Positions 30,200 to 62,242 of a stretch of 64,000 nt of DNA are shown here, one piece after another. The notes beneath the pieces are model-generated. The model worked only from the letters and a program-made list of their open reading frames with translations, ran no database searches and had not been told where the DNA came from. This stretch comes from a virus: the IMG/VR virus record IMGVR_UViG_3300045972_000084, positions 1 to 64,000 of that record; one strand, 5' to 3'. How positions within the stretch are numbered: position 1 is the first letter of the stretch; the number at the start of each line of letters is the position of its first letter. The translations under genes were made by a program, and so were the position numbers.

Positions 30200-30790
30200 A
30201 TGCCTATTTCATTTCTTAATGAGTTAATGAGTAGCTATAGCGGTAAGACTGCACCTTCAGTCAACCCATCATCTTCTGGGAAAGTTACGTTAGCACCAGG
30301 GTCTTCATCGGTCATAGGATACAAAGATCCAGCATGGGATAGCGCTGAACAAAATGCTTCCAGCAAGACCGGGGTTCCAGTGGAGCTAATCAGGTCGATA
30401 CGAGTCAATGGTGAGAAGAGTAACTCCGATCAAGTTAGCCCAAAGGGAGCTCGCGGAGTTTATCAATTCATCCCATCTACCCGCAATGCATTCAAGGAAA
30501 AGTATGGAGTTGATGCGTACAGCAATGACCCAAATGAACAAGCCTTAGCAGCAGCACATCATCTTAATGAAGGCTACCAAAGAACAGGTAGTTGGGGTAA
30601 AGCTGCTGCTGGTTTCAATGGTGGAATATCCGGAGAACGCGGAACCAATAAAACTCAAGAAAACAAAGACTATGTAAAACGTGTCATGGGTGGAATTACG
30701 CAGCGTACATCTCTAAATGATGATGACTATAGCGATGCGTGGAGTAACGATAAATTTGCAAGTACGGACGATACCGATCAAACTGCCTGA
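30200..30790 (+). CDS. Lytic transglycosylase (SLT domain) virion protein
   Basis: VNGEKSN (catalytic Glu) ... GARGVYQFIPSTRNAF ... matches the SLT motif set. Confidence 0.75.
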   Translation: MPISFLNELMSSYSGKTAPSVNPSSSGKVTLAPGSSSVIGYKDPAWDSAEQNASSKTGVPVELIRSIRVNGEKSNSDQVSPKGARGVYQFIPSTRNAFKEKYGVDAYSNDPNEQALAAAHHLNEGYQRTGSWGKAAAGFNGGISGERGTNKTQENKDYVKRVMGGITQRTSLNDDDYSDAWSNDKFASTDDTDQTA

Positions 30791-30797
30791 GAAAAAT

Positions 30798-42700: not shown

Positions 42701-43826
42701 CAAGGGTCAAATTGGGCAGCAGGCAGGAGCGGTGTACGCATTCTTCAATGCAGCCGTTCAAGGCACGGCCAACATTGGACAGACACTGTTCACTATGGAA
42801 GGCGGGAATATAAAGAGTGCCCGCTTGAGCTCTACCGGAAAGAAAGTAGTTTATGGCGGGATGATGCTGGGTGCCATGCAGGCGCTGGCGCTGGCTGCCG
42901 CAGGATTCACAGACGATGATCCTCCACAGTTTGTGCGAGACCGTGGACTGGTTTTCCCAATTGGAGACAAGAAGTACATCTCAATTCCACTACCTCAAGG
43001 GTTCAATGTGATCCCGGGAATGGGCCGACAACTTACTGAGTTTGCGCTCAATGGGTTTAAGAACCCAGCCAAGAAGGCAATCGATTTGATTGGCCTGTTT
43101 GCGGATAACTTCAATCCGATTGGCAATGCCGGGATGTCTATGCAGACCCTGGCACCCACAGCGCTGGACCCATTGGTTGCACTGACTGAGAATAGGGACT
43201 TTACTGGAAAGCCGATTGCCCGGGTTAACAGCAATAAGGCTGTACCAGGATTCACCCAGTTCAAGGACAGCGCTACCGTGATTGGAAAGCTGATCGCTGA
43301 AGGAATCAATGGGGTAACCGGTGGCAATGCCTACGTTGCCGGTGCGCTCAGCCCAACTCCTGACCAGATTGACTACCTGCTAGGGCAGGTAACCGGTGGA
43401 GTCGGCCGCGAGCTGTCAAAGGTTGAGCAGACAGCCATCAGCACGGCGACTGGGGAGGATGTTCCATCCTTCAAGATGCCACTGGTAGGACGCTTTTATG
43501 GAGATGCCAAAGAACAGGCTGCCCAAGGAGGCCAGTTCTACTCCAACGTCAATCATCTCAATGAGATTGAGACTGAGGTCAAGGCAATGCGTAAGGATGG
43601 GAAATCTGCTGATGCGCAACAAGTGCTCCGGGATAACCCAGATGCCTACTTGATTGCTCAAGCAAATGTGGCAGAACGCCAGGTGCAGCGCCTCAACAAA
43701 GAGAAGCGAGACCTGGTTGCCAAGGGTGCTGACCGTGACCTTGTAAAAGCCAAAGAGCTTCAAATCACGGCAGTAATGACGCGGCTTAATAATGCCATGG
43801 AGAAAATCCATGAGACATCAAGGTAA
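30798..43826 (+). CDS. Giant multidomain virion/ejection protein (4,342 aa; polyvalent-protein type)
   Basis: Uninterrupted 13,029-nt ORF. ATG at 30798 lies 7 nt after the SLT stop. It contains a HEFGH zincin motif, an ART-like module, several conserved uncharacterised modules and hydrophobic segments. Confidence 0.85.
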   Translation: MSETQFSSLNKILADYNKSGDSPSISHPVNSMDGQVGLAQPTQSPMGFMDHVSDVGNSIVQGGKDLVRGGSDMVRSTVGGFADLGNKAGLVSDETKNSIDESNVKAIGENLKEAEAPDRYKPKGLSGEVALGLTHAAPAIAVSMIPGVGQVLGPAAFAIQGAGAGFDAIAQGDSLNNAQAKAIGQGALNTALGHVVSGSGNALLSKVPVVGRAFEQTAADTLPAVGARFAQGAGSMAAFKPAGAAIDAAADYATGEMKNPDGTDKTYDWKPGAADLLIGGFMAVPHSVSEYASRNKMPAQATLFSDGSTGVAHKNGTLFSSSSAAESFIQSNKLDGATVAPVTKGMFDKNSKDDKVLGYVVKPPIDITPSGGQTSEAIPPTDPVTQSLTDSANKGGPLSTAVLAADPIGQRASEVEVMLRSGDLLEKVRAIDPSGATPFLDAWRTAQNKSLPEQVRQTALNQVNQVMDLVKQRQAKDLAQQVGSQMPNLEQQGPGVEINNGLPSSITQAGHQWSEMSGSTPAEDMAAQKAQALQEQQAQETQPSSDAPIIQSGPRERQAKRDAELAGQRWQDKQPIGNPAYESSPYPAPSTEGVSTSGDLNGTKDGAQPVPGVSTPTGRAIDAGSVAPGDVGRDGLAANQERPPVSSVGELGKQSSGSSNSTVGEGHGNEATQAIQAETQGSPEPSRTAVEPEAQTVTPAGDGPADVRRRKAQLSSMISKGFSDAERRDDGSFWLINHRTNEEMKLDGPADFQRARTLTENAIKEKAAESPSSPRNEKNEPSKAQIDANNYEQPETEKLGFRVGVEQDVGSERKGIDEQGKSWRQVMRHIYGKIKGFGKGFDGDEPDAFVGHGRRIFVIDQTKPDGTFDEHKIMLGFKDEEDARQSYLSNYEKGWNRIGAITEMRPHELRQWLKNGGALKPAKPYDPVTNTGVKYAAVHGVDKSSSEGKTDGQDRAGDQGVDRTGGQPEDIGLRDSSIGSLAQSGSALRDSEKDAADVASTAQKQGREISLANPEHPATRAINALLDVMAGLTGHRGIAVSDTGRGASDGFYDPLTDRYHVNVDAPQMNVAKTIVHEFGHLAKKYPGIAALYSEMYRLIPENIKREYFEKYKFKGQSFDSANGKQLHLLEEEMINDFLGGRMHDKEWLADLANKKPNLFQNFIKEWIPLLDKLITELRGILGSERDSGLQQKDIDERMISGGHLDQLEQMKRIAMDVAEEWAKNRPAYAERAGINDILVKHSSREDLQKEMEDELNGRSVSDEDIKAKGRMAEDAYPDLEWKPDSSGFQETTMAPSEGKHQQRIEMNEDLRSDLWEGGMNNTWVGPSLDERDGYATKKGARDFFRRQVAAIDLRNRKFDLANTVEKSKLNELVSAWKTMEEIDGAHRYRGTLRSDMSLKDIAKSMGVTDKYDVSIMKAPSELGEHSISVTFVDKKTGASYGATLDRHTKDGQRFLTANTIELGKSGLGGAFYQMAAEFAARNGMKLHPEDSLSGINAYRRTEQQLSAALRTDKSNVMVPHKVQRVHGFEDDATRQEQHDANLGRLILAGVRNAKELIPSFEALRYSPEMGTFTDTKGVDREKAITQILNSPDSRAFGMGRSTLARAVMSNMILKGELSAKDVASFKEPVLYSARDEAAQQYRDVEDEYRGTEHWMKAPNGKPTKLNERQWVQARTPNFLKWFGDWTKGDIWGRDDVSKVVDENGEPLVVYHGTDKGGFYSFNEPGGKDRGDLGIFTTSNGSMAESYIRKGHAKDLTPLNDQQKLDDAGIEIYEYQGRESSKATKDETFYGYRSSWSGDESGYSSKEEAQSAAISLIEEGDDGSTKPGVYATFLNLRNPYETNFEGAMWSGERHDQFMVLDKDGEPIYTDDGRQFMDNAEAIDLADARGGQVTDADSHWETTDSAVRNGRNGHDGTIILNVVDDGGGVGYDMEPSDVFVANHADQLKSADFNTGEFGDTDDIRYSEKSNEREYKLDIKMEERSTLKTARLSEEEQSAIASAAKDLGLSDVAVAKVIESAKETKKRFPVSKGWAPAEVIGIYFKKDDDELPIPGTEEPKFKVIPYGFNIPPGEKRAPAKIDEKWMSQVTDKFHGLVEDLYKRSDAGDKNAQTIIAHQTWYRNVAEVLRREYGAQGDLLADLLGAISPNTPVDTNWRFSLDILRRFVRGEFKPLMENFVKYIEAGGAPSKYPAAEKIRQLSGKLYGMNSGNAMVAMANLWRNIESGQAPKARNFALNLIGQSNMATIDVWAARMLRRAANLVRGADLPRIPPSSEAGVSGVWNADATKVTGAFGFGAEVMRRVSERMQKDGRNVTPPDLQAIAWFAEKELWGTKGWTTKTGEGGSFEENISASPVERYLAGWSIQQGEKAPEPGDVSTAQARVMAMLIGDDSVVAARAQPTFGLYGGVIEHSFDTEWTVTKGQHDPSLVMAEIAKVSKENGQYDIFVSRVIHPDERSANARPGVEIYFKTKRDLEAAMPVLNEFTSRGQDGFTLATDMRSKPGEFIGVRLQYVPEISMRWDEGLRKELMAPGGIEKVLKEKFEALRDIARDVQLMNGVAYASTHLYDTVVIGKENYDEYIDRAAGGGHPKDGGQVWFGRPVREGLEGAVARYEGKRGQVDAGRVPDAGSELQSVKNSSRDEGHSGRDGAPDQRTIRSAIHYGQRPGLKVLSGSSHGTGLKGAEYDRLKNTTDPRLTKRVYFYAPVEGGIPQPEIGLGGSVYRADLEGIYDLRTANQPIRGAGNSFESALLDAGYKGYINPEQGTIVVLNQDVPVEHIGGIGDHKVIQRRNERTIPRVETRQEGAELVRQPQGQEAMDLVQNKAAIKDAAPSYRMEYGHARVLKSEAPKADAVLAKAGSTFQFGDIRHSSRDLGFYSELSKQVEKATMKQAPSGAWKSYIKALTQKGVKADEIEWTGVNDFLDLKDGKVSKDEILKFLDGNGVQINEVTLGSPKADVEKVSAKIGHLGYEAYLDPIDGTAYFIDPDGEIAYYDDLPDHIQKMVDDTGVSVSGPAKYENYVLPGGENYREVLLTLPGRNGWLGENGETGEGKIFNTRDEAIAFAGLNGEVSESESKDGYRSSHWDQKNVLAHIRMNDRTDSEGKRVLFVEEVQSDWGQDGKKKGFNAELDKTPLTLEEISELNDLYGLRITGRTPEQTARMHALNDRDNASKGKGTIPAAPFVGKTDAWVSLALKRVIKMAVDGGYDKVAFVNGEQSADRYSLAKKVKIIDYSVTGDQNYHVEAFTHDGEVLPIPYSLDADGIERYVGKEIAQKIVDTATREKQSVKGDDLKVGGEGMKTFYDRIVPSVAKDVLKKLGGEKLETVSMSHDPNQELSKWEPEDGVGDGSKAAIDQYSQPGFTITPEMRDKVGSGMPLFSERDEKNTDLFHKDVNTQRMYLHSVATKEYLLNRRVSSADTEVSERSGSPNSGDVASVINSLLNDKGDDEVKKSMRSGTSTWDMYDDSKFDDITYKLQNKQIDTKRVIESIEKYVGKVDNDKNVYLQEELFHGRAAKATHDFAKHELEPLMKEIKDAGYELSDVEEYLHARHAKEANAVIAMRDPSMPDGGSGMTDAAADAYMRALSQEDRAKLSSISAKVDAITNQTRQMYADYGLESQATVDGWKSMFKNYIPLQREDKEGTMGIGQGFSVKGKEVKGRTGSTRKVVDILANIAMQRERLIVRGEKNRVSNALLGLAIANPNPEFWSVGAPPSERVYDPDTNSVVLRPDPMYKSRDNVIVTKAKQPDGTIKEVAVVFNEEDKRALRMAKALKNLDAGDLEGLLGVSAKITRYFSAVNTQYNPVFGVVNLVRDVQHAMITLDRTPLAKKKGKIARDTVSALSGIYQDMRAERNGQPGTSQWSQLWEDFQHEGGQTGYRQMFATSKDRAEELQKTLNPDAWLEGKYSKIFTANGALKVPLSKAKEGASVIFDWLSDYNESMENGVRLATYKAGLDQGMSKQEAASLAKNLTVNFNRKGQIGQQAGAVYAFFNAAVQGTANIGQTLFTMEGGNIKSARLSSTGKKVVYGGMMLGAMQALALAAAGFTDDDPPQFVRDRGLVFPIGDKKYISIPLPQGFNVIPGMGRQLTEFALNGFKNPAKKAIDLIGLFADNFNPIGNAGMSMQTLAPTALDPLVALTENRDFTGKPIARVNSNKAVPGFTQFKDSATVIGKLIAEGINGVTGGNAYVAGALSPTPDQIDYLLGQVTGGVGRELSKVEQTAISTATGEDVPSFKMPLVGRFYGDAKEQAAQGGQFYSNVNHLNEIETEVKAMRKDGKSADAQQVLRDNPDAYLIAQANVAERQVQRLNKEKRDLVAKGADRDLVKAKELQITAVMTRLNNAMEKIHETSR

Positions 43827-45260: not shown

Positions 45261-45349
45261 TCCGTTTTTCCCGTGTTTTATTTTGGAGTTCTTAGTTTAA
45301 TGTTTGCCGCACAGAAAAGCAATGGGGTCAACTGGTTGGGTTGATTTAG

Positions 45350-45378
45350 AGCATAAGTTGCCCAACAGCAACTATCAA
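45350..45378 (-). promoter_or_regulatory. Candidate promoter TTGATA-N17-TATGCT for the moron operon
   Basis: Read on the minus strand. A 5-bp inverted repeat GTTGC/GCAAC lies in the spacer. Confidence 0.3.
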
Positions 45379-45410
45379 AAAGATAGACATTCTGGCATTT
45401 CAGGGAGATT

Positions 45411-45431
45411 CCCAGGGAAATTATATGAATA
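45411..45431 (+). repeat. Arm-type integrase-site candidates, left pair (CAGGGAGAT, CAGGGAAAT)
   Basis: Direct repeats 12 nt apart, about 70-90 nt left of the core. Confidence 0.5.
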
Positions 45432-45498
45432 CCATGAGTATCTGTAAGTAACTCCCCAGTGGGGAGTCTGCCGTACAGCAACTATTTATATGCTGTAC

Positions 45499-45528
45499 TA
45501 ATTGGTTCGAGTCCAATTGCGCCTACCA
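45499..45528 (+). other. attP core candidate: 3' fragment of a tRNA gene (T-arm plus acceptor 3' strand plus ACCA)
   Basis: ATTGG-TTCGAGT-CCAAT T-arm, then TGCGCCT-A-CCA. No matching 5' acceptor strand (AGGCGCA), D-arm or anticodon arm lies upstream. Confidence 0.6.
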
Positions 45529-45543
45529 ATGAACATCACGTTC

Positions 45544-45563
45544 CAGGGAGATTCCAGGGAGAT
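45544..45563 (+). repeat. Arm-type integrase-site candidates, right pair (CAGGGAGAT x2)
   Basis: Direct repeats 11 nt apart, in the same orientation as the left pair, 16-35 nt right of the core. Confidence 0.5.
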
Positions 45564-45640
45564 AAACTCCAAAAGGAGCCTCTCCACTGGATTCGTGATT
45601 GTTTTCCATCCGGCATCAATCCAGATTTCTTTACAGCAAA

Positions 45641-46084: not shown

Positions 46085-46603
46085 TTAGATCTTTGATGCT
46101 GGGTGCATCAATCTTTTGGCTGCAACGTAGGCGCTGTGAGCATCATTCGGGTTATCAAAGTACCCAAGCGATTTTGTTACTCCATTGATCACAATCCGCG
46201 CCTGGTACTTTGAAATTCTTTTATGAATATGCGATCCAAGAAGCCTGCTGTTTATGTTGTTCGCTGTTGCCCTTCTTTGATTTTGAAGATTCTCAGTCCT
46301 CGAAAGAAGTCTAAGATTTTCAATTCGGTTATCTATCCTTACGCCATTGATGTGATCAATATCTAAGTTCTCAGTAGGGTGCGACCCATATTCATACAGC
46401 CAGGCTAGTCTGTGCGCCTTATGTATTACGCCATTTACCCTGATGTGCACATACCCATGGAGGCCAATAGTTCCTGCGACAGCACCTTTCCTTGCTCTTG
46501 ACGAGAAGTTGTCTATCCACCTGAACTCTCCAGTTTCAGGCGAATAGGACAGCTTGCTTTTGAGAACTTCCAGAGTGATGCTTCTTGTTTTTGCTGCCAT
46601 CAT
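46085..46603 (-). CDS. HNH homing-type endonuclease (HNH_3-like)
   Basis: LDIDHINGVRIDNRIENLRLLSRTENLQN. It overlaps the int stop by 4 nt. Confidence 0.75.
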   Translation of the reverse strand: MMAAKTRSITLEVLKSKLSYSPETGEFRWIDNFSSRARKGAVAGTIGLHGYVHIRVNGVIHKAHRLAWLYEYGSHPTENLDIDHINGVRIDNRIENLRLLSRTENLQNQRRATANNINSRLLGSHIHKRISKYQARIVINGVTKSLGYFDNPNDAHSAYVAAKRLMHPASKI

Positions 46604-50449: not shown

Positions 50450-50661
50450 TGGATCTCCTTCGTGGTGTGATTGAATTTGCCGACGACCATCTTGCTGATG
50501 TAGGTTCCGATGGAATCGGCCTTCATCAGGTTGTCGTGCAGCTCGGGTGGTACGCCCTGGTACTGGTAAATCTTTTTTCCAGACTTGAATTGCACAGACA
50601 GGACATTTGTCGCTGAGTTGTAGCCAACATGTGACACGTTGGATGAATTAACTGGCTTCAT
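50446..50661 (-). CDS. KTSC domain protein
   Basis: SSNVSHVGYNSATNVLSVQFKSGKKIYQYQGVPPELHDNLMKADSIGTY. Confidence 0.7.
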   Translation of the reverse strand: MKPVNSSNVSHVGYNSATNVLSVQFKSGKKIYQYQGVPPELHDNLMKADSIGTYISKMVVGKFNHTTKEIQ

Positions 50662-51563
50662 GATTTCTCCTCGGGTTTTGTTTGACCACCCAGTGCATCA
50701 ACTAGGTGGAGGATTGCTAAGCGCAGGGTGCCTGTGGTGATGGCTACATCGGAATCAAATGCATCATCCTTTGCATCGCCATGGCTGTTTTCAAAAACTA
50801 TATCCAGGATCTGGATCTTCTGAAGAACTAGGTCTTCCGTCAGCACAAAGGACACGCTATCTGAATAGGTCATGGCCATCTTGGTGACTGATTTGCCGCC
50901 TTCGATATGGCCAACAATTTCCTTGATGTCTAGCGCATGGTTGTCGTACTTAACTTTGGCCTTGGACTCATCGCATGCTTTGAGCTCCAGTGACCTATCA
51001 ATACTGAATGACTCATCGCAAGCTCCATCAACAAGCCATGCGGCCATGCAGCCGGATGGGGATCGCAGTGTTGTCAGTGGCGTGATTACCAGTTGGTGCA
51101 TGGCACGCACCAGTGACGTAATAGCTAAATCAGCTTTAGATCCAGTAGCCCCAACAGCAATTGTCTTTGCCATGACATCGATCCATACCAGTACAGCAGA
51201 GCGGGTAGGAAAGGCGCTGGGCAGGAGCTCTAGCACGATCTCTTCCTTGAGCTCCTTGCTTTCTTTCTTGCCCGGCTTGCGGCCGGTCTGCTCTTCGATA
51301 GCTGCCTTGCGCTCTTGAAGCTTGCGTTCGACCACATCAGACGGGACTTTCTTGGTTTCGATCTGCAGCTTGAGAATCCACTGGTTGTCGATGGACTCTA
51401 CGAGAGCGCCGAAGCTATCGCCACGGGGCGGCACCCATCCAATGGATGAGGCCTGGGTTGGTCCACAAGGAACAAATGAATGCTCCTGCAGGTGCTCCTC
51501 GGCCAATCCATGAACCATGGGTGCGGCGGTCTGGAAGTTGAATAACGATAGAACCTTAAACAT
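50658..51563 (-). CDS. rdgC: Recombination-associated protein RdgC
   Basis: F.PCG......GWVPP ... LLPSAFPTRS ... WID pattern, collinear with E. coli RdgC. Confidence 0.8.
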   Translation of the reverse strand: MFKVLSLFNFQTAAPMVHGLAEEHLQEHSFVPCGPTQASSIGWVPPRGDSFGALVESIDNQWILKLQIETKKVPSDVVERKLQERKAAIEEQTGRKPGKKESKELKEEIVLELLPSAFPTRSAVLVWIDVMAKTIAVGATGSKADLAITSLVRAMHQLVITPLTTLRSPSGCMAAWLVDGACDESFSIDRSLELKACDESKAKVKYDNHALDIKEIVGHIEGGKSVTKMAMTYSDSVSFVLTEDLVLQKIQILDIVFENSHGDAKDDAFDSDVAITTGTLRLAILHLVDALGGQTKPEEKS

Positions 51564-54209: not shown

Positions 54210-54998
54210 TTATTGGGTTACTGTTGCGCGGACCATGGCCTTTTGCTCTTCGGTCATGTTTGCGCGGGATGCGACCGTGGCGATAACCTGGTCGGCCGTT
54301 TTCTTTCCTGACTCAATCAGTCCGCGCCACGTCGGCAGGTTCTTGGCGAACTGGTCGTCGGAGTAGGGTGGCAGTCCATTGCCTTGTTGCTGCTGCTGTT
54401 TGCGGTATTCAGGAGGAGGCTGATCGAAATCATTTCTTCCATATCCGTACCCATCGTCATCGGGCATATCCATGGTTGCTAATCCGCACGATTGCAGCAG
54501 CGTATAACGACTTAAATAAGTCTGGGCCGATGCAATTGCTTGGATTGAATTCTTCTTCCCGCTAACATCTGGCGGAGACATCATGGTTGTTGACTCGCTG
54601 TGCCCAAGGCGGTGCGTAATCTTGCAAGTTACAGAAATTACTCCGTTCTCTTGCTTTGTTTCCCAGCTATGACTAAACCCATACTCAGCAAGTGCATTGA
54701 CAACAGCTTTGGTTACATCTCCAAGGGTTGCATGCATGTACTCAGTACCAGAGAAAGAAACAAGCTTTGTCTTGAAGATTTCTGGCGGGTGCTTTTTGAA
54801 CTCCGCCATATCTGCAACATAGGCCTTGCGCGCCTCATTTGCCTCGTAATCTTTCTGTAAGTTCATAAGGCCTTGCATTTGCTCCACAGTCATGCCTGCC
54901 TGTAGTGCAATAATTGCATTTGCCATTGGCCCAGCCGACAGTTGGCCAGTAGGCTGAGACTGAATGGCACCTTGTTTTGATTCGACTATTGCGTTCAT
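54210..54998 (-). CDS. ERF-family single-strand annealing protein
   Basis: ATLGDV...L...GFSHSWET....G.ISVTCKITHRLGHSE ... NSIQAIASAQTYLSRYTL ... DDDG. GGAG-N6-ATG favours the start at 54998. Confidence 0.7.
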   Translation of the reverse strand: MNAIVESKQGAIQSQPTGQLSAGPMANAIIALQAGMTVEQMQGLMNLQKDYEANEARKAYVADMAEFKKHPPEIFKTKLVSFSGTEYMHATLGDVTKAVVNALAEYGFSHSWETKQENGVISVTCKITHRLGHSESTTMMSPPDVSGKKNSIQAIASAQTYLSRYTLLQSCGLATMDMPDDDGYGYGRNDFDQPPPEYRKQQQQQGNGLPPYSDDQFAKNLPTWRGLIESGKKTADQVIATVASRANMTEEQKAMVRATVTQ

Positions 54999-55525
54999 AC
55001 ATGACTCCATGATTTGCTTGATGCTGCTCGGCTTGCAGTCATTCGACTTACTGAGAATTCATTCGCCAGTGTTGTGATTGACGCACCTTCACTTCTGCGT
55101 TTACGAAGTGCTATCACGGCATCTGTATTGAGTTTTGAGAATGGATGGCGATCACCGCAGTTGCTTGTCCCGTGCATTCGCTTGTCAGCATGGTTTGCTT
55201 TAATCGTGTCCCATCGCAGGTTGGATGCTTTGTTGTTCTGCCTATCGCCATCGCAGTGGCATGCCTGCATTCCTTCTGGACACGGGCCAACAAATGCGCA
55301 GAGAACTATTTGATGTATGTATACGGTTGAAACAATGTCACCATTTGTCAACCGAATGCTTAGATACTTTGATTTGCCTGCACCTGGAGATAGAACTTTT
55401 TCGTAAATCTGGTACTGCTTTCCATCTGGTTGATGGACAACTCTCGGAAGCCTTTTAATACGACCAAGATCACTGATCATGTAAAGACCTTCATAGCCAA
55501 CTACATCAATCCATTGCTCGTTCAT
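54995..55525 (-). CDS. HNH homing endonuclease (NUMOD4-like N-terminus)
   Basis: WIDVVGYEGLYMISDLGRIKRL; CHCDGDRQNNKASNLRWDTIKANHADK. Confidence 0.8.
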   Translation of the reverse strand: MNEQWIDVVGYEGLYMISDLGRIKRLPRVVHQPDGKQYQIYEKVLSPGAGKSKYLSIRLTNGDIVSTVYIHQIVLCAFVGPCPEGMQACHCDGDRQNNKASNLRWDTIKANHADKRMHGTSNCGDRHPFSKLNTDAVIALRKRRSEGASITTLANEFSVSRMTASRAASSKSWSHV

Positions 55526-55606: not shown

Positions 55607-55909
55607 TCAGACTGGTCTGATTAAGCCGAGCTCGAAAAGCTGGCCAATAGTGCTGCGGTGAGCTTCATCCCATCTCTCTATGCGCTCACTCTTGGAAAGG
55701 TTCTTTCCGCTATCAATTTCAACGTGGCATTTAGGGCATATTGCAGCTACCCGGTAGGGCTTCGCCTTCAACCCCATGCCCTTACCATCCTTGCTCTGGT
55801 TTGAGTGCGATACCTGAACACCATGTTTGCCGCACAGTTGACACGGCAGCTGGGCCACTGCGGCGAACAGTTTCTTCTGATCGCTAGGGTGCATGAGCTG
55901 ATACTTCAT
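55607..55909 (-). CDS. YbcO/DUF1364-like putative nuclease
   Basis: C..CG...V..SH.......GMGLKA......A.C..CH.EID pattern. It sits next to a YbcN-like gene, as in the DLP12 nin region. Confidence 0.5.
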   Translation of the reverse strand: MKYQLMHPSDQKKLFAAVAQLPCQLCGKHGVQVSHSNQSKDGKGMGLKAKPYRVAAICPKCHVEIDSGKNLSKSERIERWDEAHRSTIGQLFELGLIRPV

Positions 55910-56376
55910 GCGTACGCCAATATCTGATCGACAATGTTTCGCAACCGTGCCTCAGACATTTCCCCGTGGTAGATGTGCTTCAAAGCCGCGCTAATGAAGT
56001 CTGAGTAGACCTGTTCGCGCTCCTCGGGAGAGCACTTCGCGAATGAAAGTGACCTGGCTTTTGGCGTTGGCTTTCCATCCCAGTCAAACACGACATCAAA
56101 GTGCCCAGCAAGAATCGTGAAGTGCTGCCTCCATGTGTCAAAGCACGGCTTTACCAGTTGCCCCTGGTACTCAACCCCGGTGTCGACGCGATCCTTGAAT
56201 TGCTCATAGCAGAGATTCAACAAACTCATCATCTTGCGGTGGAATGCACCGTTCTGCATGAGCTTAAATTCTCCGCGCACCATGGAGCCAGACTTGAATC
56301 GTTTAAGTGACTCTGCCTGCTCATCATCAACCGGTATAAGCGAACCCGTTGGAGACTTTAGAAGGATTACTTCCAT
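55906..56376 (-). CDS. YbcN/DUF1367-like protein
   Basis: 156 aa. N-terminal L.P.DDE..E.LK..K.G...R.EF...NGAFHRKMMSLLNL. Confidence 0.45.
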   Translation of the reverse strand: MEVILLKSPTGSLIPVDDEQAESLKRFKSGSMVRGEFKLMQNGAFHRKMMSLLNLCYEQFKDRVDTGVEYQGQLVKPCFDTWRQHFTILAGHFDVVFDWDGKPTPKARSLSFAKCSPEEREQVYSDFISAALKHIYHGEMSEARLRNIVDQILAYA

Positions 56377-56585
56377 TGCGCCTCCAACCGGATTCCGCGT
56401 GACGTTCCTTTGATGATACGGATCTGACCCTTACGCTCCAGGATTTTCAAACCTTCCTCTGCAGAGTTTGGGCTCCTATATCCCAGGCCCTCGGCGATCT
56501 CTTGCCTGGTAGGTGGCACATCGTTTTTCGTGATGAAGTCCTTGATGAAGTGCATCATCTTGGTTTGAACTGCTGTCAAATGCAT
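56367..56585 (-). CDS. LexA N-terminal DNA-binding domain only (72 aa; no cleavage site, no S24 domain)
   Basis: PPTRQEIAEGLGYRSPNSAEEGLKILERKGQIRIIKGTSRGIRL versus E. coli LexA [44 protein letters not shown]. Confidence 0.8.
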   Translation of the reverse strand: MHLTAVQTKMMHFIKDFITKNDVPPTRQEIAEGLGYRSPNSAEEGLKILERKGQIRIIKGTSRGIRLEAQWK

Positions 56586-56587
56586 GC

Positions 56588-57583
56588 TTAGTCTCGCTCT
56601 TTGTAAAGGAGGTTGATGGTCTTAAACGAAAGTGTGTGGTCCAGTGAGCGGAACACTAGGCCCTCGCCGTGGCGGCCGTTGGGGTAGGTGATCTCAGCCA
56701 TCCGACGAAGCTGGTCCGCATCCAAGTAGCAGCCCGGCTCAATCGTGAACTGGGCATGCGCAATGGGTACGCCGGTTGCAATGCAGGCGTCAATCAGATC
56801 CTGGTCGCTGCGGCGGCAATGGTTCACAAAGTCGTACAGCGTGAAGGCGCGTCCCTCAACATCCGCCAGTCCCAATGGGTTACCTTGGATGCTTGGACCT
56901 ATCACCTCGAACTGCAGTGCACAGCCTTCAGGCAGTTTGCTTAGGTCGTACTTGCGTGCCGTCTTCCAGTAGGCATTCGTTCCACCAGTAGGGATGAACT
57001 CTTCGAGCTCCAGGTTTCTACTGGCCACACGAAGTGCACCCGTGGTAATGTCGTTCCACGCGGTGCAGCTTGATCCGTCGTACTTAATGCGCGCCACCAT
57101 GGCGAGGTTGGCGATCTTGTCTTCCAAGTCGTCAACGGTCTGAAAGTTGGGCTCATCGGTCTTTGGAATGAAGCTAGGGAAGTTTCCTTTGGCCACGCCT
57201 TGCATGGATGCCGGAATGGGCTTGGTGAACTTTGTCACCCCAAGCTTCTCGGAGAAGTCAGTCCCTATGGGCGCATCGAATTGAAGCTCATCAACTGGGT
57301 CGGTTGGGATGTTGATGATCACGCATTCCGAAGGTACGCCTTTAAAGCGGGCCATGCGAACACGCCACTTGTGCTTTTCCATGAATGCCCAGCGTGGGTC
57401 AGGCGGGAGCACGGCATCCTGCAGAAATACTAAAACCCTTGAAGCAGGTAGGACATCAAGCCCAACTACTCCAGACCACTTGCCTGCAGATCCGCACACC
57501 ACTGTTGCCTGACGAATAAAGTCAGCTCCTGGGATGTTGTGAATTGCTACTACCATTCCGATTACTACTAACGCCTGTGTCAT
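56588..57583 (-). CDS. ATP-dependent RNA ligase, DRB0094/Rnl5-like (N-terminal OB plus nucleotidyltransferase)
   Basis: KYDGSS motif I (KxDG). The N-terminal ...IHNIPGADFIRQATV.G...W.VV... is OB-like. Length is about 330 aa. Confidence 0.65.
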   Translation of the reverse strand: MTQALVVIGMVVAIHNIPGADFIRQATVVCGSAGKWSGVVGLDVLPASRVLVFLQDAVLPPDPRWAFMEKHKWRVRMARFKGVPSECVIINIPTDPVDELQFDAPIGTDFSEKLGVTKFTKPIPASMQGVAKGNFPSFIPKTDEPNFQTVDDLEDKIANLAMVARIKYDGSSCTAWNDITTGALRVASRNLELEEFIPTGGTNAYWKTARKYDLSKLPEGCALQFEVIGPSIQGNPLGLADVEGRAFTLYDFVNHCRRSDQDLIDACIATGVPIAHAQFTIEPGCYLDADQLRRMAEITYPNGRHGEGLVFRSLDHTLSFKTINLLYKERD

Positions 57584-57721
57584 CTTTTTTCCTCTTTAGT
57601 TCAAGCCACGGAAGCTGCTCCGTGTATGTGTTGAAAGCCCTATCTGCATAAGCCGGGTCAAAGGTGTAGATCCATCGGCAATGGGATAGGACAAGTTGTT
57701 TCAGAGCCTTGTCTCGTTCTG

Positions 57722-57904: not shown

Positions 57905-58287
57905 CAGTACGGCTCCTTGTTTTCGTTGTGGCGCACCCAAAACTCTTTGCAGTCAGCTCGGAACTCCCAATCTCCACGCTCTGTGTTGGCAGGGTGATCA
58001 AATCCAAATCCCTCATCCCATTGGCGATCAATCCCAAACTGGCGTTCAGTTGCCAAGGTGCATGCGGGGCAGTTGTGGCATGCTTCACGCAGCGCCTTAA
58101 AACCCTTTGCATAGGCGGCCTGCAGTTCAGGCATCGAGAGTTGAACCTCACCCATCAGGGCGCACATACTGCACTCCCGATCAGGTCGCAACGTGCAACC
58201 CTTTTCATGCTTCACCATGGAAGGCTTGGTTCCGGTAGACTTTTTGCAGTGGTCGCAGTAGTACCGGTTTTTCAAAATAATCTTCAT
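57904..58287 (-). CDS. Cys-rich zinc-finger protein (127 aa)
   Basis: YYCDHCKK...HEKGC, CSMC and CHNCPAC motifs. Confidence 0.5.
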   Translation of the reverse strand: MKIILKNRYYCDHCKKSTGTKPSMVKHEKGCTLRPDRECSMCALMGEVQLSMPELQAAYAKGFKALREACHNCPACTLATERQFGIDRQWDEGFGFDHPANTERGDWEFRADCKEFWVRHNENKEPY

Positions 58288-59219
58288 GCTCGCATCCTTT
58301 GTTTCGCAAGGTGTTCAAGATTTGTAAGGGTGAGTGGAGGGGCTTGCCTCTGACTACGGACCCGGGCCTTGTAGGCCAGGAATTGCTCATCCAGCTCAAC
58401 CCATGGTCCAAAGCCATTGGCAATACCCTCAGCCTCGATAGAGGCTCTGGAGTCAGGGTCTGCAGTTGCCGCGCTTTCTGGCGGAGGTGCGACCCCAAAC
58501 GATCCACGGACCCGGAGCTTGGCCCAGTCCTCACGGACAGCCTCCATGAACGCCGAGTCCCAGTCGACGTACTGGTAGCCCTTGGCCTTGGCCTTGGCTT
58601 TGAACGCCTCCAGGTGTTGGTTGAGCTGGCCAAAGCCCTTCTCCCTGGACCAGTCCACAACCCGTTGGCTAATGCCAAAGTCGACTGGGATGTCTGACTT
58701 CGGTGGCTTCCTCTTTGGCTTATCCACAGTGGGCGTAGGCAACGCAGTTGCCGATGGCGCGGAAGCGCTGCACTCAGGAAGGGGGAAGGGGGAAGAGGGA
58801 TTCAGGAAGAGGGATTCAGCCGGAGCGGTTCCGTTTTTATCCAGAACTTTCTCGATATTCTCTAACTTGTTGATTTCATTAGAGTTTTCTGGAGGTGCTG
58901 GGATTTCACTTCCGGAGTCTCGCTCGTTCTTGTGAGGGTTCTGGTGCTTGTCAAAATTGAGGATGCTGATGTACCGTTGACCTGATACGGAATAGATCAA
59001 GATAAATCCAGAGTCCTCCAGATTTTTCGCGAGGACTTCGATATCGCAGTTGTCGTACGGCAGAAGTTGAACTTTGATTCGTTTTGGGCGGAACTCAAAG
59101 CAACCCTTGAAGTCGGCAATAGTCCACATGCCAATGAATAGGAGCCTGGCTATTGGCTCAAGCTCACCAAGCTTATCGTTGGAGAAAAAGCTGGGCTTTA
59201 TATTCCTCGCTCTTGCCAT
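58284..59219 (-). CDS. Putative replication initiation/organiser protein (311 aa)
   Basis: It is the second gene of the leftward operon, after the Cro-like gene. The N-terminal IKPSFFSNDKLGEL.P.ARLLFIGMWTIADF.G pattern is seen in phage replication proteins (recollection). Confidence 0.4.
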   Translation of the reverse strand: MARARNIKPSFFSNDKLGELEPIARLLFIGMWTIADFKGCFEFRPKRIKVQLLPYDNCDIEVLAKNLEDSGFILIYSVSGQRYISILNFDKHQNPHKNERDSGSEIPAPPENSNEINKLENIEKVLDKNGTAPAESLFLNPSSPFPLPECSASAPSATALPTPTVDKPKRKPPKSDIPVDFGISQRVVDWSREKGFGQLNQHLEAFKAKAKAKGYQYVDWDSAFMEAVREDWAKLRVRGSFGVAPPPESAATADPDSRASIEAEGIANGFGPWVELDEQFLAYKARVRSQRQAPPLTLTNLEHLAKQRMRA

Positions 59220-59310
59220 TTATTTTGTCCTACTGGTTAAAATTACAGGTTGCATATCTATACTTGTTTGCTAGACTGCAAATCTAATGTTGAGAAATTT
59301 GTTAAATCCG

Positions 59311-59523
59311 CTACCTAGTTGTCAAGCTGAGTCGCCAGCGAAGAAGTTCTTCGTGCGTGAACTTTCCACTGGAAAGCTCAACGATCACGGGAATCCATTT
59401 CGCTGGGAGAGCGCGTCTTTCGTGCTTCACATTGCTGACATTTGTCGCATTGATGCCCAGCTTTTTTCTCAACTGGGTGGCCTGCCCAGGATTCTTATCC
59501 AGCCATTTTCGGAATTTCTGCAT
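59311..59523 (-). CDS. Cro-like HTH regulator (70 aa), leaderless
   Basis: Divergent from cI. QATQLRKKLGINATNVSNVKH is an HTH. The ATG lies 6 nt after the -10 box. Confidence 0.65.
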   Translation of the reverse strand: MQKFRKWLDKNPGQATQLRKKLGINATNVSNVKHERRALPAKWIPVIVELSSGKFTHEELLRWRLSLTTR

Positions 59524-59525
59524 GC

Positions 59526-59538
59526 CAGCATTATGCTG
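59526..59538. promoter_or_regulatory. Operator candidate: perfect palindrome CAGCAT-T-ATGCTG overlapping the Cro -10 box
   Basis: Seen directly in the sequence. Centred on the CATAAT. Confidence 0.55.
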
Positions 59539-59558
59539 AACAGCAAACGAATGGTCAA
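59530..59558 (-). promoter_or_regulatory. PR-like promoter TTGACC-N17-CATAAT
   Basis: Minus strand: TTGACC attcgtttgctgttcag CATAAT gctggc ATG. Confidence 0.65.
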
Positions 59559-59591: not shown

Positions 59592-60281
59592 ATGGCTGAA
59601 AAAGATGAGCTAACACCAATTCGCAGATCAAACCTGGCTCTATGGATGGAGGAGGGTGGGGTCACCAGGACATCCTTGGCTGATCGCCTTGGTGTTGGCC
59701 GTGCCTATACGTCACTTCTATTTAATGAGACGCGCTACTTTGGATCAAAGGCGGCAAGGTCTATTGAGAAGAAGCTTTACATGCCTACTGGATTCTTGGA
59801 TGCAGCACCAGGGACTGTGCCTTTGTCTGTATCTGAGTGGTCTACACCCGCAGATTTGCCATCGAATGTTTTTGCACTGGTGCCAAGGATTGCCGTCCAG
59901 GTTGCGGCCGGAAGCGGCGCGATTGTGGATGTCGAAGAGCATCTTCCTCCCCTTGCTTTTAGAAAGCATTGGCTTGATAAGAAACAGATTACGAGCAGGG
60001 ATAACCTGCGCATCGTGACCGTGAAGGGAGACTCGATGAGCCCCTACCTCATGGATCACGATGTTGCAATGATTGACACCGGCCAAGTCGACCAGATCCA
60101 AGACAATCACATTTATGCGATAGAGCACTCAGGCGATGTTCGGATTAAGAGACTGTCAAAAAGATTCGATGGGGGTGTGTTGATCAGGTCTGATGCACCG
60201 GGCTACCCGGAAGAATCACTCTCAGCCAAGGACGCTAAGTCGCTTCGCGTTATTGGGAAGCTGGTATGGCGTGCTGGATAG
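59592..60281 (+). CDS. cI: CI-type repressor (HTH plus S24 LexA-like autopeptidase)
   Basis: N-terminal HTH (TRTSLADRLGVGRAYTSLLFN), an Ala-Gly site (QVAAGSGA), GDSMSP (Ser) and IKRL (Lys). AAGGAGG RBS. Confidence 0.9.
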   Translation: MAEKDELTPIRRSNLALWMEEGGVTRTSLADRLGVGRAYTSLLFNETRYFGSKAARSIEKKLYMPTGFLDAAPGTVPLSVSEWSTPADLPSNVFALVPRIAVQVAAGSGAIVDVEEHLPPLAFRKHWLDKKQITSRDNLRIVTVKGDSMSPYLMDHDVAMIDTGQVDQIQDNHIYAIEHSGDVRIKRLSKRFDGGVLIRSDAPGYPEESLSAKDAKSLRVIGKLVWRAG

Positions 60282-60453: not shown

Positions 60454-60715
60454 GATGTCGATTCCTTTCGGTGAGAGTCGCATGCAGGTAGCATTTCCAC
60501 AGCGTCTCGATGTGTGATCCTGGGTATTTGTATCCAGGCTTTGGCGTGACGAGCACGCGAGGTTGGTAGCCCATGGTCTGAAGAAAGACATGGAACGATT
60601 CGCGGATAGGGAGGTCTCGCTCCAGTGTTGTAGTCTCGATGCGAACCCGCTCCTCAAAGTCTTCCTTGCGTAGGATGGCTTCTCGGATCTTGTCTTCTTC
60701 AGATGGGTGTGTCAT
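60443..60715 (-). CDS. Hypothetical protein (90 aa)
   Basis: ATGA-coupled to the deacetylase gene. It overlaps the HTH gene start by 11 nt. Confidence 0.5.
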   Translation of the reverse strand: MTHPSEEDKIREAILRKEDFEERVRIETTTLERDLPIRESFHVFLQTMGYQPRVLVTPKPGYKYPGSHIETLWKCYLHATLTERNRHHDK

Positions 60716-61608
60716 GTTGTTTCCAGTAGGTGTTGCCGATGCTGAATGCTACCCCTGGCAGCGCGCAAAGTGTTGAGGTGCACCCTGAGTACCGGATCGG
60801 TCTCAATCGTGCCTCCTGGGTTAGCCTGGTAGCCTCCGGCGATGCAAAATGAAGTTGGTGCATTGATGTTGTCAAAGACCATCTTGTCGCGTTGCGATAA
60901 CTGCTTGTCGTCTAGGAATCCTCCAAGCGGGTCATTAATGTGAGGATCGGCACCCAGCTGCGCAATTACAACGTCTGGTCGAAATGCATTTATTTCGTCA
61001 ATCGATTCCTTTAGCCAGGCTTGAAACTCAAGTGCCTCCTGCCTTGGGTTGTCACCGTAAAAGTATTTGCCTTGTGTTAAATGCAAGACACTGTTTGACA
61101 GCTCCGGCTTGTGCTGCAATATATTTTCAGTTCCATTGCCTTCATGCATGTCGAGATCGAGAATTGCACACTTGAAGTCAGGGTTTTCTTGCAGCAATTT
61201 TGCAGCCACAACCATCAGCCCATTGAATGTACAAAAGCCACCGGAGCCGATGCTGTAGCCGCTATGGTGGAAGCCGCTTGTGGGGCTTAGGACTGGAGTT
61301 GTCGGGCTCTCTATTGCGCACCTTGTTGCTCCAAGTAGGCTACCAATGGTCCATAAACAAGACTCCGGAATGCGTGGGTCGCAATTCTCAAATCCGTTCG
61401 GGTCCATGAGTGCAAAGATACGATCCACATGATCTTTGCGATGCACAAGGTACAAGTCTTCTTTTGTTACTGGTGTTACTTGGCGCACGTCTGAAAATCC
61501 GTGGCGAGACGCGAGCCAAACCAATCGCTCTGGCTTTGATGCACTTGGTGAGTAACTATCTATCCCGGAAACCGACTGACGTTTGTCGTAAAAAATTGGT
61601 ATGTTCAT
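60712..61608 (-). CDS. HDAC/acetoin-utilisation/acetylpolyamine-amidohydrolase superfamily Zn-deacetylase (298 aa)
   Basis: SGFHHSGY, ILDLDMHEGNGTE, GADPHINDPLGG and IAGGY: the full catalytic signature. The start at 61608 avoids overlap with the upstream gene. Confidence 0.8.
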   Translation of the reverse strand: MNIPIFYDKRQSVSGIDSYSPSASKPERLVWLASRHGFSDVRQVTPVTKEDLYLVHRKDHVDRIFALMDPNGFENCDPRIPESCLWTIGSLLGATRCAIESPTTPVLSPTSGFHHSGYSIGSGGFCTFNGLMVVAAKLLQENPDFKCAILDLDMHEGNGTENILQHKPELSNSVLHLTQGKYFYGDNPRQEALEFQAWLKESIDEINAFRPDVVIAQLGADPHINDPLGGFLDDKQLSQRDKMVFDNINAPTSFCIAGGYQANPGGTIETDPVLRVHLNTLRAARGSIQHRQHLLETT

Positions 61609-61609
61609 T

Positions 61610-62242
61610 TCATGCTGCCTTTTTGAAAATTCCATTTGATGCAATCTCTATATCTTTATAGAAGACGTTCCTTTTGCTGATGTATTGATAATCCAGCCCA
61701 GCTAAGTCACATGCATCGCCAAGCGAAATTACTTCGTTTTTGTAAAAGACCATAGTGGTCGTTGATCTGTTTCTTGCTTGTGATTTGCTTGTAGCCCATC
61801 GACAATTTTCAGGCCCATAAGGCTTGCTGTTGTCTATCCTGTCCAAGCTAAATTGAAGACCAGGTCTATTTCCCATGTCTGCAAGAAATATCAAGTAGTT
61901 TCTCCATTCCAATGGAGGAGTTCGATCCTTGTATTCGTTGTATCTTGGGTAGTTCTTATTGGTGCATCTATTCCACATTGATTTCCATGAGCTGTATGTT
62001 ATGGAGTCAACATCGCCATGTTTTAGAAAGGTTGAAGATGTAATTTTTTTATGCAAGCATCCGCAGCTTTTAGTGTGACCACTTAATAAAGAATACTGCC
62101 GTACTGATGTCAACTCACCGCAATCACAAACGCATTCCCATATTGGAACTCTGCTCTTGTTTTTTCCTTTGTATTCTGTGACGATAAGATTTCCAAATCT
62201 AGTTCCAATCAACTCCATCTTTGCATCAATTGCTTTTGGCAT
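61610..62242 (-). CDS. Phage Zn-finger / degenerate HNH(AP2)-like DNA-binding protein (210 aa)
   Basis: GTRFGNLIV...WECVCDCG....L.SGHTKSCGC; YSSWKSMWNRC; SLDRIDNSKPYGPENCRWAT. Confidence 0.55.
   Translation of the reverse strand: MPKAIDAKMELIGTRFGNLIVTEYKGKNKSRVPIWECVCDCGELTSVRQYSLLSGHTKSCGCLHKKITSSTFLKHGDVDSITYSSWKSMWNRCTNKNYPRYNEYKDRTPPLEWRNYLIFLADMGNRPGLQFSLDRIDNSKPYGPENCRWATSKSQARNRSTTTMVFYKNEVISLGDACDLAGLDYQYISKRNVFYKDIEIASNGIFKKAA

Follow-up and report, generated by a model that had tools for sequence, protein, structure and literature searches.

Stand-alone LexA domains and the mini-LexA gene

Among truncated LexA homologues encoded by mobile elements, gp6 of the Bacillus tectivirus GIL01 is expressed from a LexA-repressed early promoter (PMC6182141, PMC11511902), binds the palindrome GaCACAnnTGTGaC overlapping the -35 of the late promoter P3, activates P3, and has a recognition-helix residue, Lys38, that is essential for DNA binding (PMC6182141). 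The N-terminal fragment left after cleavage of LexA itself is reported to keep some SOS-box binding and repression, so that full SOS induction requires its removal by ClpXP (PMC10584840). Mobile elements are known to restrain the SOS response through GIL01 gp7 (a LexA co-repressor), Listeria phage AriS (via RecA), plasmid PsiB and prophage DinI-like proteins (PMC9043618). Here we describe a gene for a stand-alone LexA DNA-binding domain, hereafter mini-LexA (72 amino acids, 56367..56585, - strand), in the virus record IMGVR_UViG_3300045972_000084, positions 1 to 64,000 of which form the window analysed, together with a host-type LexA operator (SOS box) at 59231..59250 that lies upstream in the same operon. 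The pairing of the LexA box with mini-LexA is the new element contributed here, together with the recurrence of a box close to such genes in other phages.

The gene itself belongs to a family that is already well represented in sequence records, and the novelty implied by an initial annotation, made from the sequence alone, was overstated given this recurrent, annotated phage family and the characterisation of gp6. Searching with tblastn, we found relatives in 61 deposited records, of which 3 are host lexA or fragments of it and the rest small stand-alone genes of early regions, annotated as 'LexA DNA binding domain protein', 'LexA-like' or 'transcriptional repressor' and assigned to PHROG families 24920, 362 and 3502 (the PHROG label 'transcriptional repressor' is an annotation by homology). 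Copies of 108 amino acids are carried by mEp460-, SfV-, SfII-, SfIV- and cdtI-like phages and by Stx2 phages; further carriers are EPP-1 (71 amino acids), Hafnia phage yong2 (123), Proteus phage V3 (159), a Klebsiella phage and mEp390, and Pelagibacter phage HTVC106P has a 77-amino-acid stand-alone LexA domain. Stand-alone LexA domains are present in about 55 deposited phage records, named copies being mEp460 gp46, SfV orf42, SfIV gp43, mEp390 gp43, EPP-1 lexA_2 and HTVC106P gp18. An exhaustive HMMER search, covering 1.84 billion representatives, returned 2120 hits, among which are many assembly fragments as well as genuine short forms ending just past RGIRL. Mini-LexA is thus a rare sub-lineage of a known, widely annotated phage gene family, for whose stand-alone LexA domains in phages of Proteobacteria no functional study was found in the literature searched. 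Four relatives (P0004, P0007, P0063 and P0099, 141-162 amino acids) possess two tandem LexA_DNA_bind domains by Pfam and no S24 domain; these could be single-chain pseudo-dimers for palindromic boxes, and their existence shows that a missing dimerisation domain can be made up for.

Evaluating the product of the ATG-started open reading frame, MHLTAVQTKMMHFIKDFITKNDVPPTRQEIAEGLGYRSPNSAEEGLKILERKGQIRIIKGTSRGIRLEAQWK, against profile and structure databases, we found that Pfam LexA_DNA_bind (PF01726) matches with E=4.8e-20, from position 3 to the last of its 65 profile positions, with no second Pfam domain and no PF00717 (S24) match in the same profile search. In a search against all PDB sequences the top match was 1LEA, the E. 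coli LexA N-terminal domain (E=1.3e-18), followed by 1JHF and 3JSO, and mini-LexA residues 3-68 align without gaps on LexA 4-69. Identity to E. coli LexA is 38/66 (57.6%) across this aligned stretch and 38/72 (52.8%) of the whole protein, so that the earlier estimate of about 50% was fair. The AlphaFold2 model, built from a 3-sequence alignment, has a mean pLDDT (predicted local distance difference test) of 82 and consists of three helices and a two-stranded wing (H-H-H-E-E); its top Foldseek match is 3jso_B, from the LexA-DNA complex 3JSO, with a template modelling (TM) score of 0.82 and a root-mean-square deviation of 2.0 Å over 67 residues. Profile matches were also obtained to phrog_24920 (E=1.1e-21) and phrog_362 (E=6.2e-18), and the NCBIfam lexA equivalog TIGR00498 matches over its positions 3-70 of 203 only, at 65.2 bits and below its 110.95-bit cut-off. 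Of the features that define a LexA repressor proper, mini-LexA has the winged-helix domain and lacks both the Ala-Gly site and the S24 Ser/Lys domain. The whole protein is one LexA winged-helix DNA-binding domain, complete and with nothing added.

The ATG of mini-LexA lies 2 nt past the stop of the RNA-ligase gene (56588..57583, - strand; PF09414, phrog_968), with a GAG-type Shine-Dalgarno remnant ahead of it. At the other end, the gene for the recombination mediator NinB/Orf (55906..56376, - strand; phrog_319, E=4e-34, full-length match) reaches 10 nt into the mini-LexA gene, across its stop, which leaves no space for a cleavage site or S24 domain in any frame. The initial annotation had placed the gene between an RNA ligase and nin-type genes, which the matches to the ligase, NinB and a following HNH gene bear out. 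The C-terminus, EAQWK, extends five residues past RGIRL (not six, as first counted) and corresponds to LexA residue 73, with Ala84-Gly85 lying beyond. Two further claims hold on these grounds: the protein stops short of the Ala-Gly hinge and the S24/dimerisation domain, PF01726 being its sole domain, and RecA* cannot inactivate it by autocleavage because the Ala-Gly site and the Ser/Lys domain are missing. Neher and colleagues reportedly found, in 2003, that the new C-terminus of LexA at residue 84 is a recognition signal for ClpX; having no residue-84 terminus, mini-LexA may escape degradation by ClpX.

The recognition helix, SPNSAEEGLK, and its E. coli LexA counterpart had been given correctly in the annotation. 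DNA-contact residues of E. coli LexA are Ser39, Asn41, Ala42, Glu44 and Glu45 (PMC13416735, citing Knegtel 1995). At these positions mini-LexA has Ser, Asn, Ser, Glu and Glu, such that four of five are identical and the one change is Ala42 to Ser; at LexA position 46 it has Gly, where E. coli LexA has His.

We assessed the reality of the gene from its relatives, of which only two are close among 5.8 billion protein clusters: P0002 (74% identity, 72 amino acids) and P0003 (77%, 75 amino acids). Both come from other metagenomes, both keep the order RNA ligase-LexA domain-NinB (loci L005 and L006), making the ligase the conserved upstream and NinB the conserved downstream partner in all three subfamily members, and the ending ...RGIRLExQWK is common to all three proteins. 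A metagenome scan with the subfamily alignment for close relatives on longer contigs returned none. Between mini-LexA and P0002 the nonsynonymous divergence (dN) is 0.15 and the synonymous divergence (dS) about 2 (saturated), for a dN/dS of 0.075. The shared architecture in two relatives and the low dN/dS argue that mini-LexA is a real, selected gene, and the same conserved tail in the independent P0002 and P0003 excludes a frameshift artefact, which also removes the possibility, raised at the outset as a refutation, that the gene is a frameshifted full-length lexA. We find it scarcely credible that the gene is what remains, without function, of a host lexA once captured, or that it arose through errors of sequencing or assembly. 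The gene is short, and the database is rich in frameshifted LexA fragments from metagenome assemblies; against this stand the purifying dN/dS measured to a relative with saturated synonymous sites, the length, QWK tail and gene order shared by three independent assemblies, the tight coupling to both neighbouring genes, and the existence of whole PHROG families of the same architecture. Nor is it a recent capture, since it is at most about 58% identical to any full-length LexA found. We also considered, and rejected, a mosaic exchange of the gene as a 'specificity allele': nucleotide identity to L005 is about 70% in the gene and about 80-85% in the flanks, with no sharp boundary.

A LexA box in the early operon and what it may mean

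A search for SOS-box matches had been suggested by the initial annotation, and on the phage side it yields one strong site, TACTGGTTAAAATTACAGGT on the + strand (ACCTGTAATTTTAACCAGTA on the - strand), at 59231..59250. The search used a symmetrised position weight matrix (PWM) of 21 E. coli LexA boxes, whose consensus is that of E. coli and may not be the host's. With this matrix the site scores 18.4 bits and is the sole strong match in the window, the runner-up reaching 8.5; the E. coli training boxes themselves score 12.9-27.3 bits, so that 18.4 falls within their range. Across 100 Markov shuffles the best score averaged 12.4±2.1 and none (0/100) reached 18.4, and the pattern ACTGN-W8-NCAG, defined post hoc, has 1 match in the window as compared with 0.02 expected. 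The box is found in the 91 bp of non-coding DNA that separate cro from the replication initiator, 12 nt ahead of the ATG of the latter, at the head of the operon that contains mini-LexA 2.6 kb downstream.

Other searches for an operator were negative. Exact CTGT-N8-ACAG has 0 hits in the window, with 19 one-mismatch hits against 27 expected; many real LexA boxes end in CCAG, and this pattern missed the box because it is overly strict. Neither CTGT/ACAG pairs at spacings 0-16 nor other perfect palindromes within the non-coding DNA yielded a recurrent candidate operator. The exact 19-mer of the box has one hit in IMG/VR, in L090, which we set aside as a chance match because L090 shares nothing further with the window.

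We then asked how box and gene are distributed in other phages. In the 38.6 kb of Edwardsiella phage EPP-1 only one strong box occurs (25.0 bits); it overlaps a promoter-like site situated 62 nt ahead of a Rha/Ant-like gene, and the stop of that gene adjoins the gene for the 71-amino-acid LexA domain. In SfIV a 23.8-bit box follows the LexA-domain copy at a distance of 440 nt and precedes a KilA-N gene, and in Hafnia phage yong2 an 18.9-bit box fronts a phage recA (L014, 6080..7234), with the 123-amino-acid LexA-domain protein 1.7 kb away. All three boxes are less than 2 kb from the respective LexA-domain gene. As a first control we used 71 IMG/VR loci (750 kb) sharing the replication initiator, none of which (0/71) has a LexA-domain gene and 5 of which have a box of at least 18 bits. 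Such a box within 4 kb is found in 4 of the 8 gammaproteobacterial phages with the gene versus 5 of these 71 control loci (Fisher p=0.005). The second control, 80 metagenome loci (467 kb) with related RNA ligases, contains no comparable LexA-domain gene adjoining the ligase (0 of 80; L142 has a weak, distant match 2.3 kb downstream) and a single box of at least 15 bits. The association of box and gene is suggestive, not established.

Two observations on boxes in other phages stand beside these counts. In mEp460 (L011) there are four LexA boxes of 21-26 bits, at 31970, 23255, 23283 and 41021, of which two front a DinI-like gene, one falls inside the prophage repressor gene as annotated, towards its 5' end, and one is at the start of a DNA methylase. 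A subset of the IMG/VR loci (L048-L059) has a conserved 15.6-bit LexA-like box, GGCTGTTGATTCATCCAGTA, about 194 nt upstream of the replication gene and no LexA-domain gene, suggesting that LexA control of the replication module may predate mini-LexA.

To account for the gene and its box, we tentatively favour a role for mini-LexA as a RecA*-insensitive binder of LexA operators that holds or re-closes LexA-controlled promoters, a plausible account in which the DNA specificity, the dimerisation on DNA, the sign of the effect (repression versus activation) and the relevant targets are predictions from sequence. Expression of mini-LexA would come from the early (cro-side) operon once the phage has infected a cell or been induced, and two monomers would occupy a CTG-N10-CAG box while being, for want of the S24 domain, neither cleaved nor held dimeric. 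LexA-controlled promoters would be kept or put back under repression while host LexA is destroyed. The box at 59231..59250 would be the one nameable target, through which mini-LexA would feed back negatively on the early operon or on a promoter that the box overlaps; host SOS boxes would be bound too, damping the SOS regulon along with whatever LexA controls in rival prophages. The CI of this phage possesses an S24 domain, so that, by analogy with lambda CI, phage induction would coincide with loss of LexA; the Erf, RecE-like and RdgC-like genes, which create or handle RecA substrates, share the operon with mini-LexA. A more elaborate form of this idea, possible in our view though doubtful, is that mini-LexA and a LexA box together make up a RecA-blind latch of general use to phages: SOS would destroy host LexA, the phage operon would fire, and the uncleavable surrogate would re-close its own operon and re-repress the host SOS response together with the LexA-controlled antirepressors, colicins and defence genes of rivals, giving the inducing phage priority.

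The annotation's proposal that the domain reads host-type SOS boxes gains from the four of five matching contact residues and from a strong box heading the gene's own operon, and falls short of proof. The favoured role also draws on the repression reported for the isolated LexA N-terminal domain (PMC10584840), on the position of the gp6 gene behind a LexA-repressed promoter (PMC6182141, PMC11511902), on the nearby boxes of EPP-1, SfIV and yong2, and on the tandem-domain relatives. Several observations weigh against the favoured role. Of its relatives only gp6 has been characterised, and that protein activates and reads another site. The box, for its part, could be there for host LexA alone, as must be the case in the many phages with boxes but no mini-LexA. 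Recognition-helix positions 44-46 are variable among stand-alone homologues, P0002 having Val-Asp-Gly there, which suggests that the specificity of the family may not be fixed. Mini-LexA has also diverged at the protein level 3-6x as much as its neighbours: at the P0002 locus the ligase is 90% and the NinB N-terminus 96% identical, versus 74% for the LexA domain, and across L005 and L006 protein identity is 89-90% for the RNA ligase and 85-96% for NinB. As regards the box, a promoter scan revealed no convincing sigma-70 promoter running through it on the operon strand, and the PWM was derived from E. coli boxes, which may differ from those of the host. In other phages, none of the strong boxes of mEp460 is less than 4 kb from its LexA-domain gene, the gene is present with no nearby box in mEp390, Proteus phage V3 and Klebsiella phage Kp4866-6, and the association test compares few, non-independent phages with controls of unknown hosts.

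Some of the same evidence would suit a narrower function, in which mini-LexA regulates only the operator or operators of its own phage, setting early timing or controlling a PRE-like promoter to cI, and hardly affects the host SOS response. A monomeric domain should bind weakly, which makes a nearby cis target, with the benefit of local concentration, plausible, and the box does lie within the gene's own operon. A weak promoter-like site on the + strand (59237..59264, TTAAAA-16-TATACT) has its -35 within the box and would read antisense over cro to cI, in a geometry like that of lambda PRE. Faster divergence than that of the neighbouring genes is likewise what cognate regulator-site pairs display. 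Set against this, the + strand site is a speculative 9/12 match of a kind that occurs regionally at chance frequency, there is no second copy of the site in the window, and a protein able to bind its own box would be expected to bind, too, those host boxes that match as well or better. We consider such a private regulator unlikely, though not negligible.

A second alternative, which we think rather unlikely, is that mini-LexA has drifted to a phage-specific site and switches on a delayed or late promoter in the manner of gp6 at P3, the sole experimentally characterised stand-alone LexA homologue acting in this way (PMC6182141). No Q-like antiterminator or late regulator was recognised among the early-operon genes scanned, the variability of the recognition-helix positions among homologues would allow such drift, and the start of the late operon, a possible location for the cognate site, falls outside the window. 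The kinship with gp6 is nevertheless distant: BLASTP gave no alignment between mini-LexA and gp6, identity in the multiple alignment is 27%, the essential Lys38 aligns with Asn40, and the helix of mini-LexA is of the E. coli LexA type. The gp6 palindrome GaCACAnnTGTGaC is absent from the window, where 2 one-mismatch hits, both intragenic, compare with 2.95 expected, and in mEp460, mEp390, SfIV and EPP-1 the LexA-domain gene coexists with a Q-like antiterminator.

The missing dimerisation domain also permits the opposite effect, whereby mini-LexA monomers at half-sites or in non-productive positions would compete with host LexA, weaken the cooperativity of the LexA dimer and raise LexA-controlled expression, as is conceivable for a phage that profits from RecA/SOS functions. 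This strikes us as very improbable, given that any occupant of a promoter-overlapping operator tends to repress and that the isolated N-terminal domain of LexA is reported as repressing (PMC10584840).

Returning to the favoured role of a RecA*-insensitive operator binder, its consequences would extend beyond this phage, as stand-alone LexA genes are common in temperate enteric phages, including Stx2-converting phages. RecA-independent re-repression, if true, would affect the duration and strength of SOS functions in lysogens (mutagenesis, toxins and induction of Shiga-toxin phages), competition among co-resident prophages and the timing of phage early genes. If the protein were instead gp6-like, LexA domains would have been recruited repeatedly as phage activators. 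The pairing of box and gene makes the idea directly testable with one protein and one 20-bp site.

Genomic surroundings

The phage in the window is temperate: its + strand holds portal and internal-virion proteins, an integrase lies beside an excisionase-like small open reading frame, and both CI and a cro-like gene are present. The CI-type repressor (59592..60281, + strand; PF00717 E=6e-17, phrog_4 E=1e-30) possesses an S24 autopeptidase domain, as the initial annotation had stated in describing it as separate from mini-LexA, and is divergent from cro. The cro-like gene (59311..59523, - strand), with a YdaS/Cro-type helix-turn-helix, is the first of the early operon and matches PF15943 at E=1e-6 and 28.9 bits, against a cut-off of 30; ahead of it, at 59530..59558 on the - strand, a PR-like sigma-70 promoter (TTGACC-17-CATAAT), identified solely by a 10/12 match to consensus, is the putative driver of cro and the early operon.

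From there the - strand operon runs through cro, the replication initiator (58284..59219, - strand; phrog_12556 E=1.5e-50; the gene that directly follows the LexA box), a Cys-rich protein, a small protein, the RNA ligase, mini-LexA and NinB, continues after NinB with HNH, NUMOD4/HNH, Erf, a RecE-like exonuclease, an endonuclease, the RdgC-like gene (50658..51563, - strand; phrog_724 E=1e-71) and further genes, and ends with dUTPase-like, xis-like and int genes, the labels 'dUTPase-like' and 'xis-like' being readings of the translations with no family search behind them. RdgC is an inhibitor of RecA, which is the sole basis for linking the RdgC-like gene to RecA control. Across the early region there are at least four scattered HNH/homing-endonuclease-like genes, all on the - strand, at 54995..55525, 46085..46603, 61610..62242 and 55607..55909, whose families are NUMOD4/HNH_3, AP2-like, phrog_374 and phrog_131.

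The 138-bp gap upstream of the RNA ligase (57584..57721) is 72-93% identical to L005, the genes further upstream being unrelated, and contains the hairpin CACGGAGCAGCTTCCGTG. It is the left edge of the conserved ligase/mini-LexA/NinB module and may be a regulatory element.

Other features of the window concern the phage at large. Upstream of cI, a 310-amino-acid gene of the histone-deacetylase family (60712..61644, - strand; PF00850 according to the gene table for an identical Logan contig) is an unusual phage accessory gene with no PHROG match. The virion module ends in a single open reading frame of 4369 amino acids (30717..43826, + strand), whose C-terminal ~880 amino acids match phrog_14770 (E=3e-192), a family of giant phage proteins with no known function, and whose residues ~670-970 match a domain also present in DarB-like antirestriction proteins and in minor head proteins. 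Where the operon ends with the integrase, the adjacent non-coding stretch 45261..45640 has a tRNA T-arm-like sequence, AATTGGTTCGAGTCCAATT, at 45500..45518, adjoined by a 7-bp inverted repeat, TACAGCA-N10-TGCTGTA (45474); ARAGORN found no whole tRNA in 45261..45640, and AATTGGTTCGAGTCCAATT probably represents the core of attP, identical in that case to the 3' terminus of a tRNA gene of the host.

Among cultured phages, NinB and the portal have their nearest relatives in the Pseudomonas phages Itty13 and Rollin, at 33-41% identity; the NinB-HNH pair occurs in Itty13 too, but no LexA domain accompanies it. With megablast the region matched no phage, and a profile search of genome contigs returned host-type lexA only, in two gammaproteobacterial metagenome-assembled genomes. 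The host of the phage is probably a gammaproteobacterium.

Comparison with known systems

Compared with the phage family of stand-alone LexA domains, mini-LexA shares the single-domain architecture and the early position among replication, nin and recombination genes, and its phage resembles mEp460, mEp390, SfIV and EPP-1 in also having a separate S24-type CI. It differs in being only 37-55% identical to these proteins, many of which (108-159 amino acids) carry a C- or N-terminal extension, and its subfamily, with three sequences among the 5.8 billion clusters, is tied to the RNA ligase-NinB module, unlike other stand-alone copies.

The N-terminal domain or cleavage fragment of E. coli LexA is its closest structural counterpart, with the same winged helix (the TM score and identity being those given above) and, likewise, no dimerisation or protease domain; mini-LexA, however, is encoded by the phage and not produced by cleavage, has a conserved EAQWK tail, and is without residues 74-84. 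GIL01 gp6 resembles it as a DNA-binding domain only, encoded in an early operon behind a LexA operator, whereas gp6 is of Firmicute-type LexA origin, has its own palindrome and acts as an activator, and mini-LexA has a host-type helix with a host-type box present.

If the favoured role as a RecA*-insensitive operator binder holds, mini-LexA would resemble the non-cleavable LexA3 (Ind-), both being RecA*-insensitive, in acting as a constitutive SOS-box repressor. LexA3, in contrast, is a full-length dimer of normal affinity, while mini-LexA would be monomeric, presumably with a much lower affinity and an action dependent on concentration. The proposed outcome, in which the host SOS regulon is held down during the development of the element, would also be that of gp7, AriS, PsiB and the DinI-like proteins; these are unrelated to it in sequence and act on the RecA or LexA protein, whereas mini-LexA would replace LexA at the DNA.

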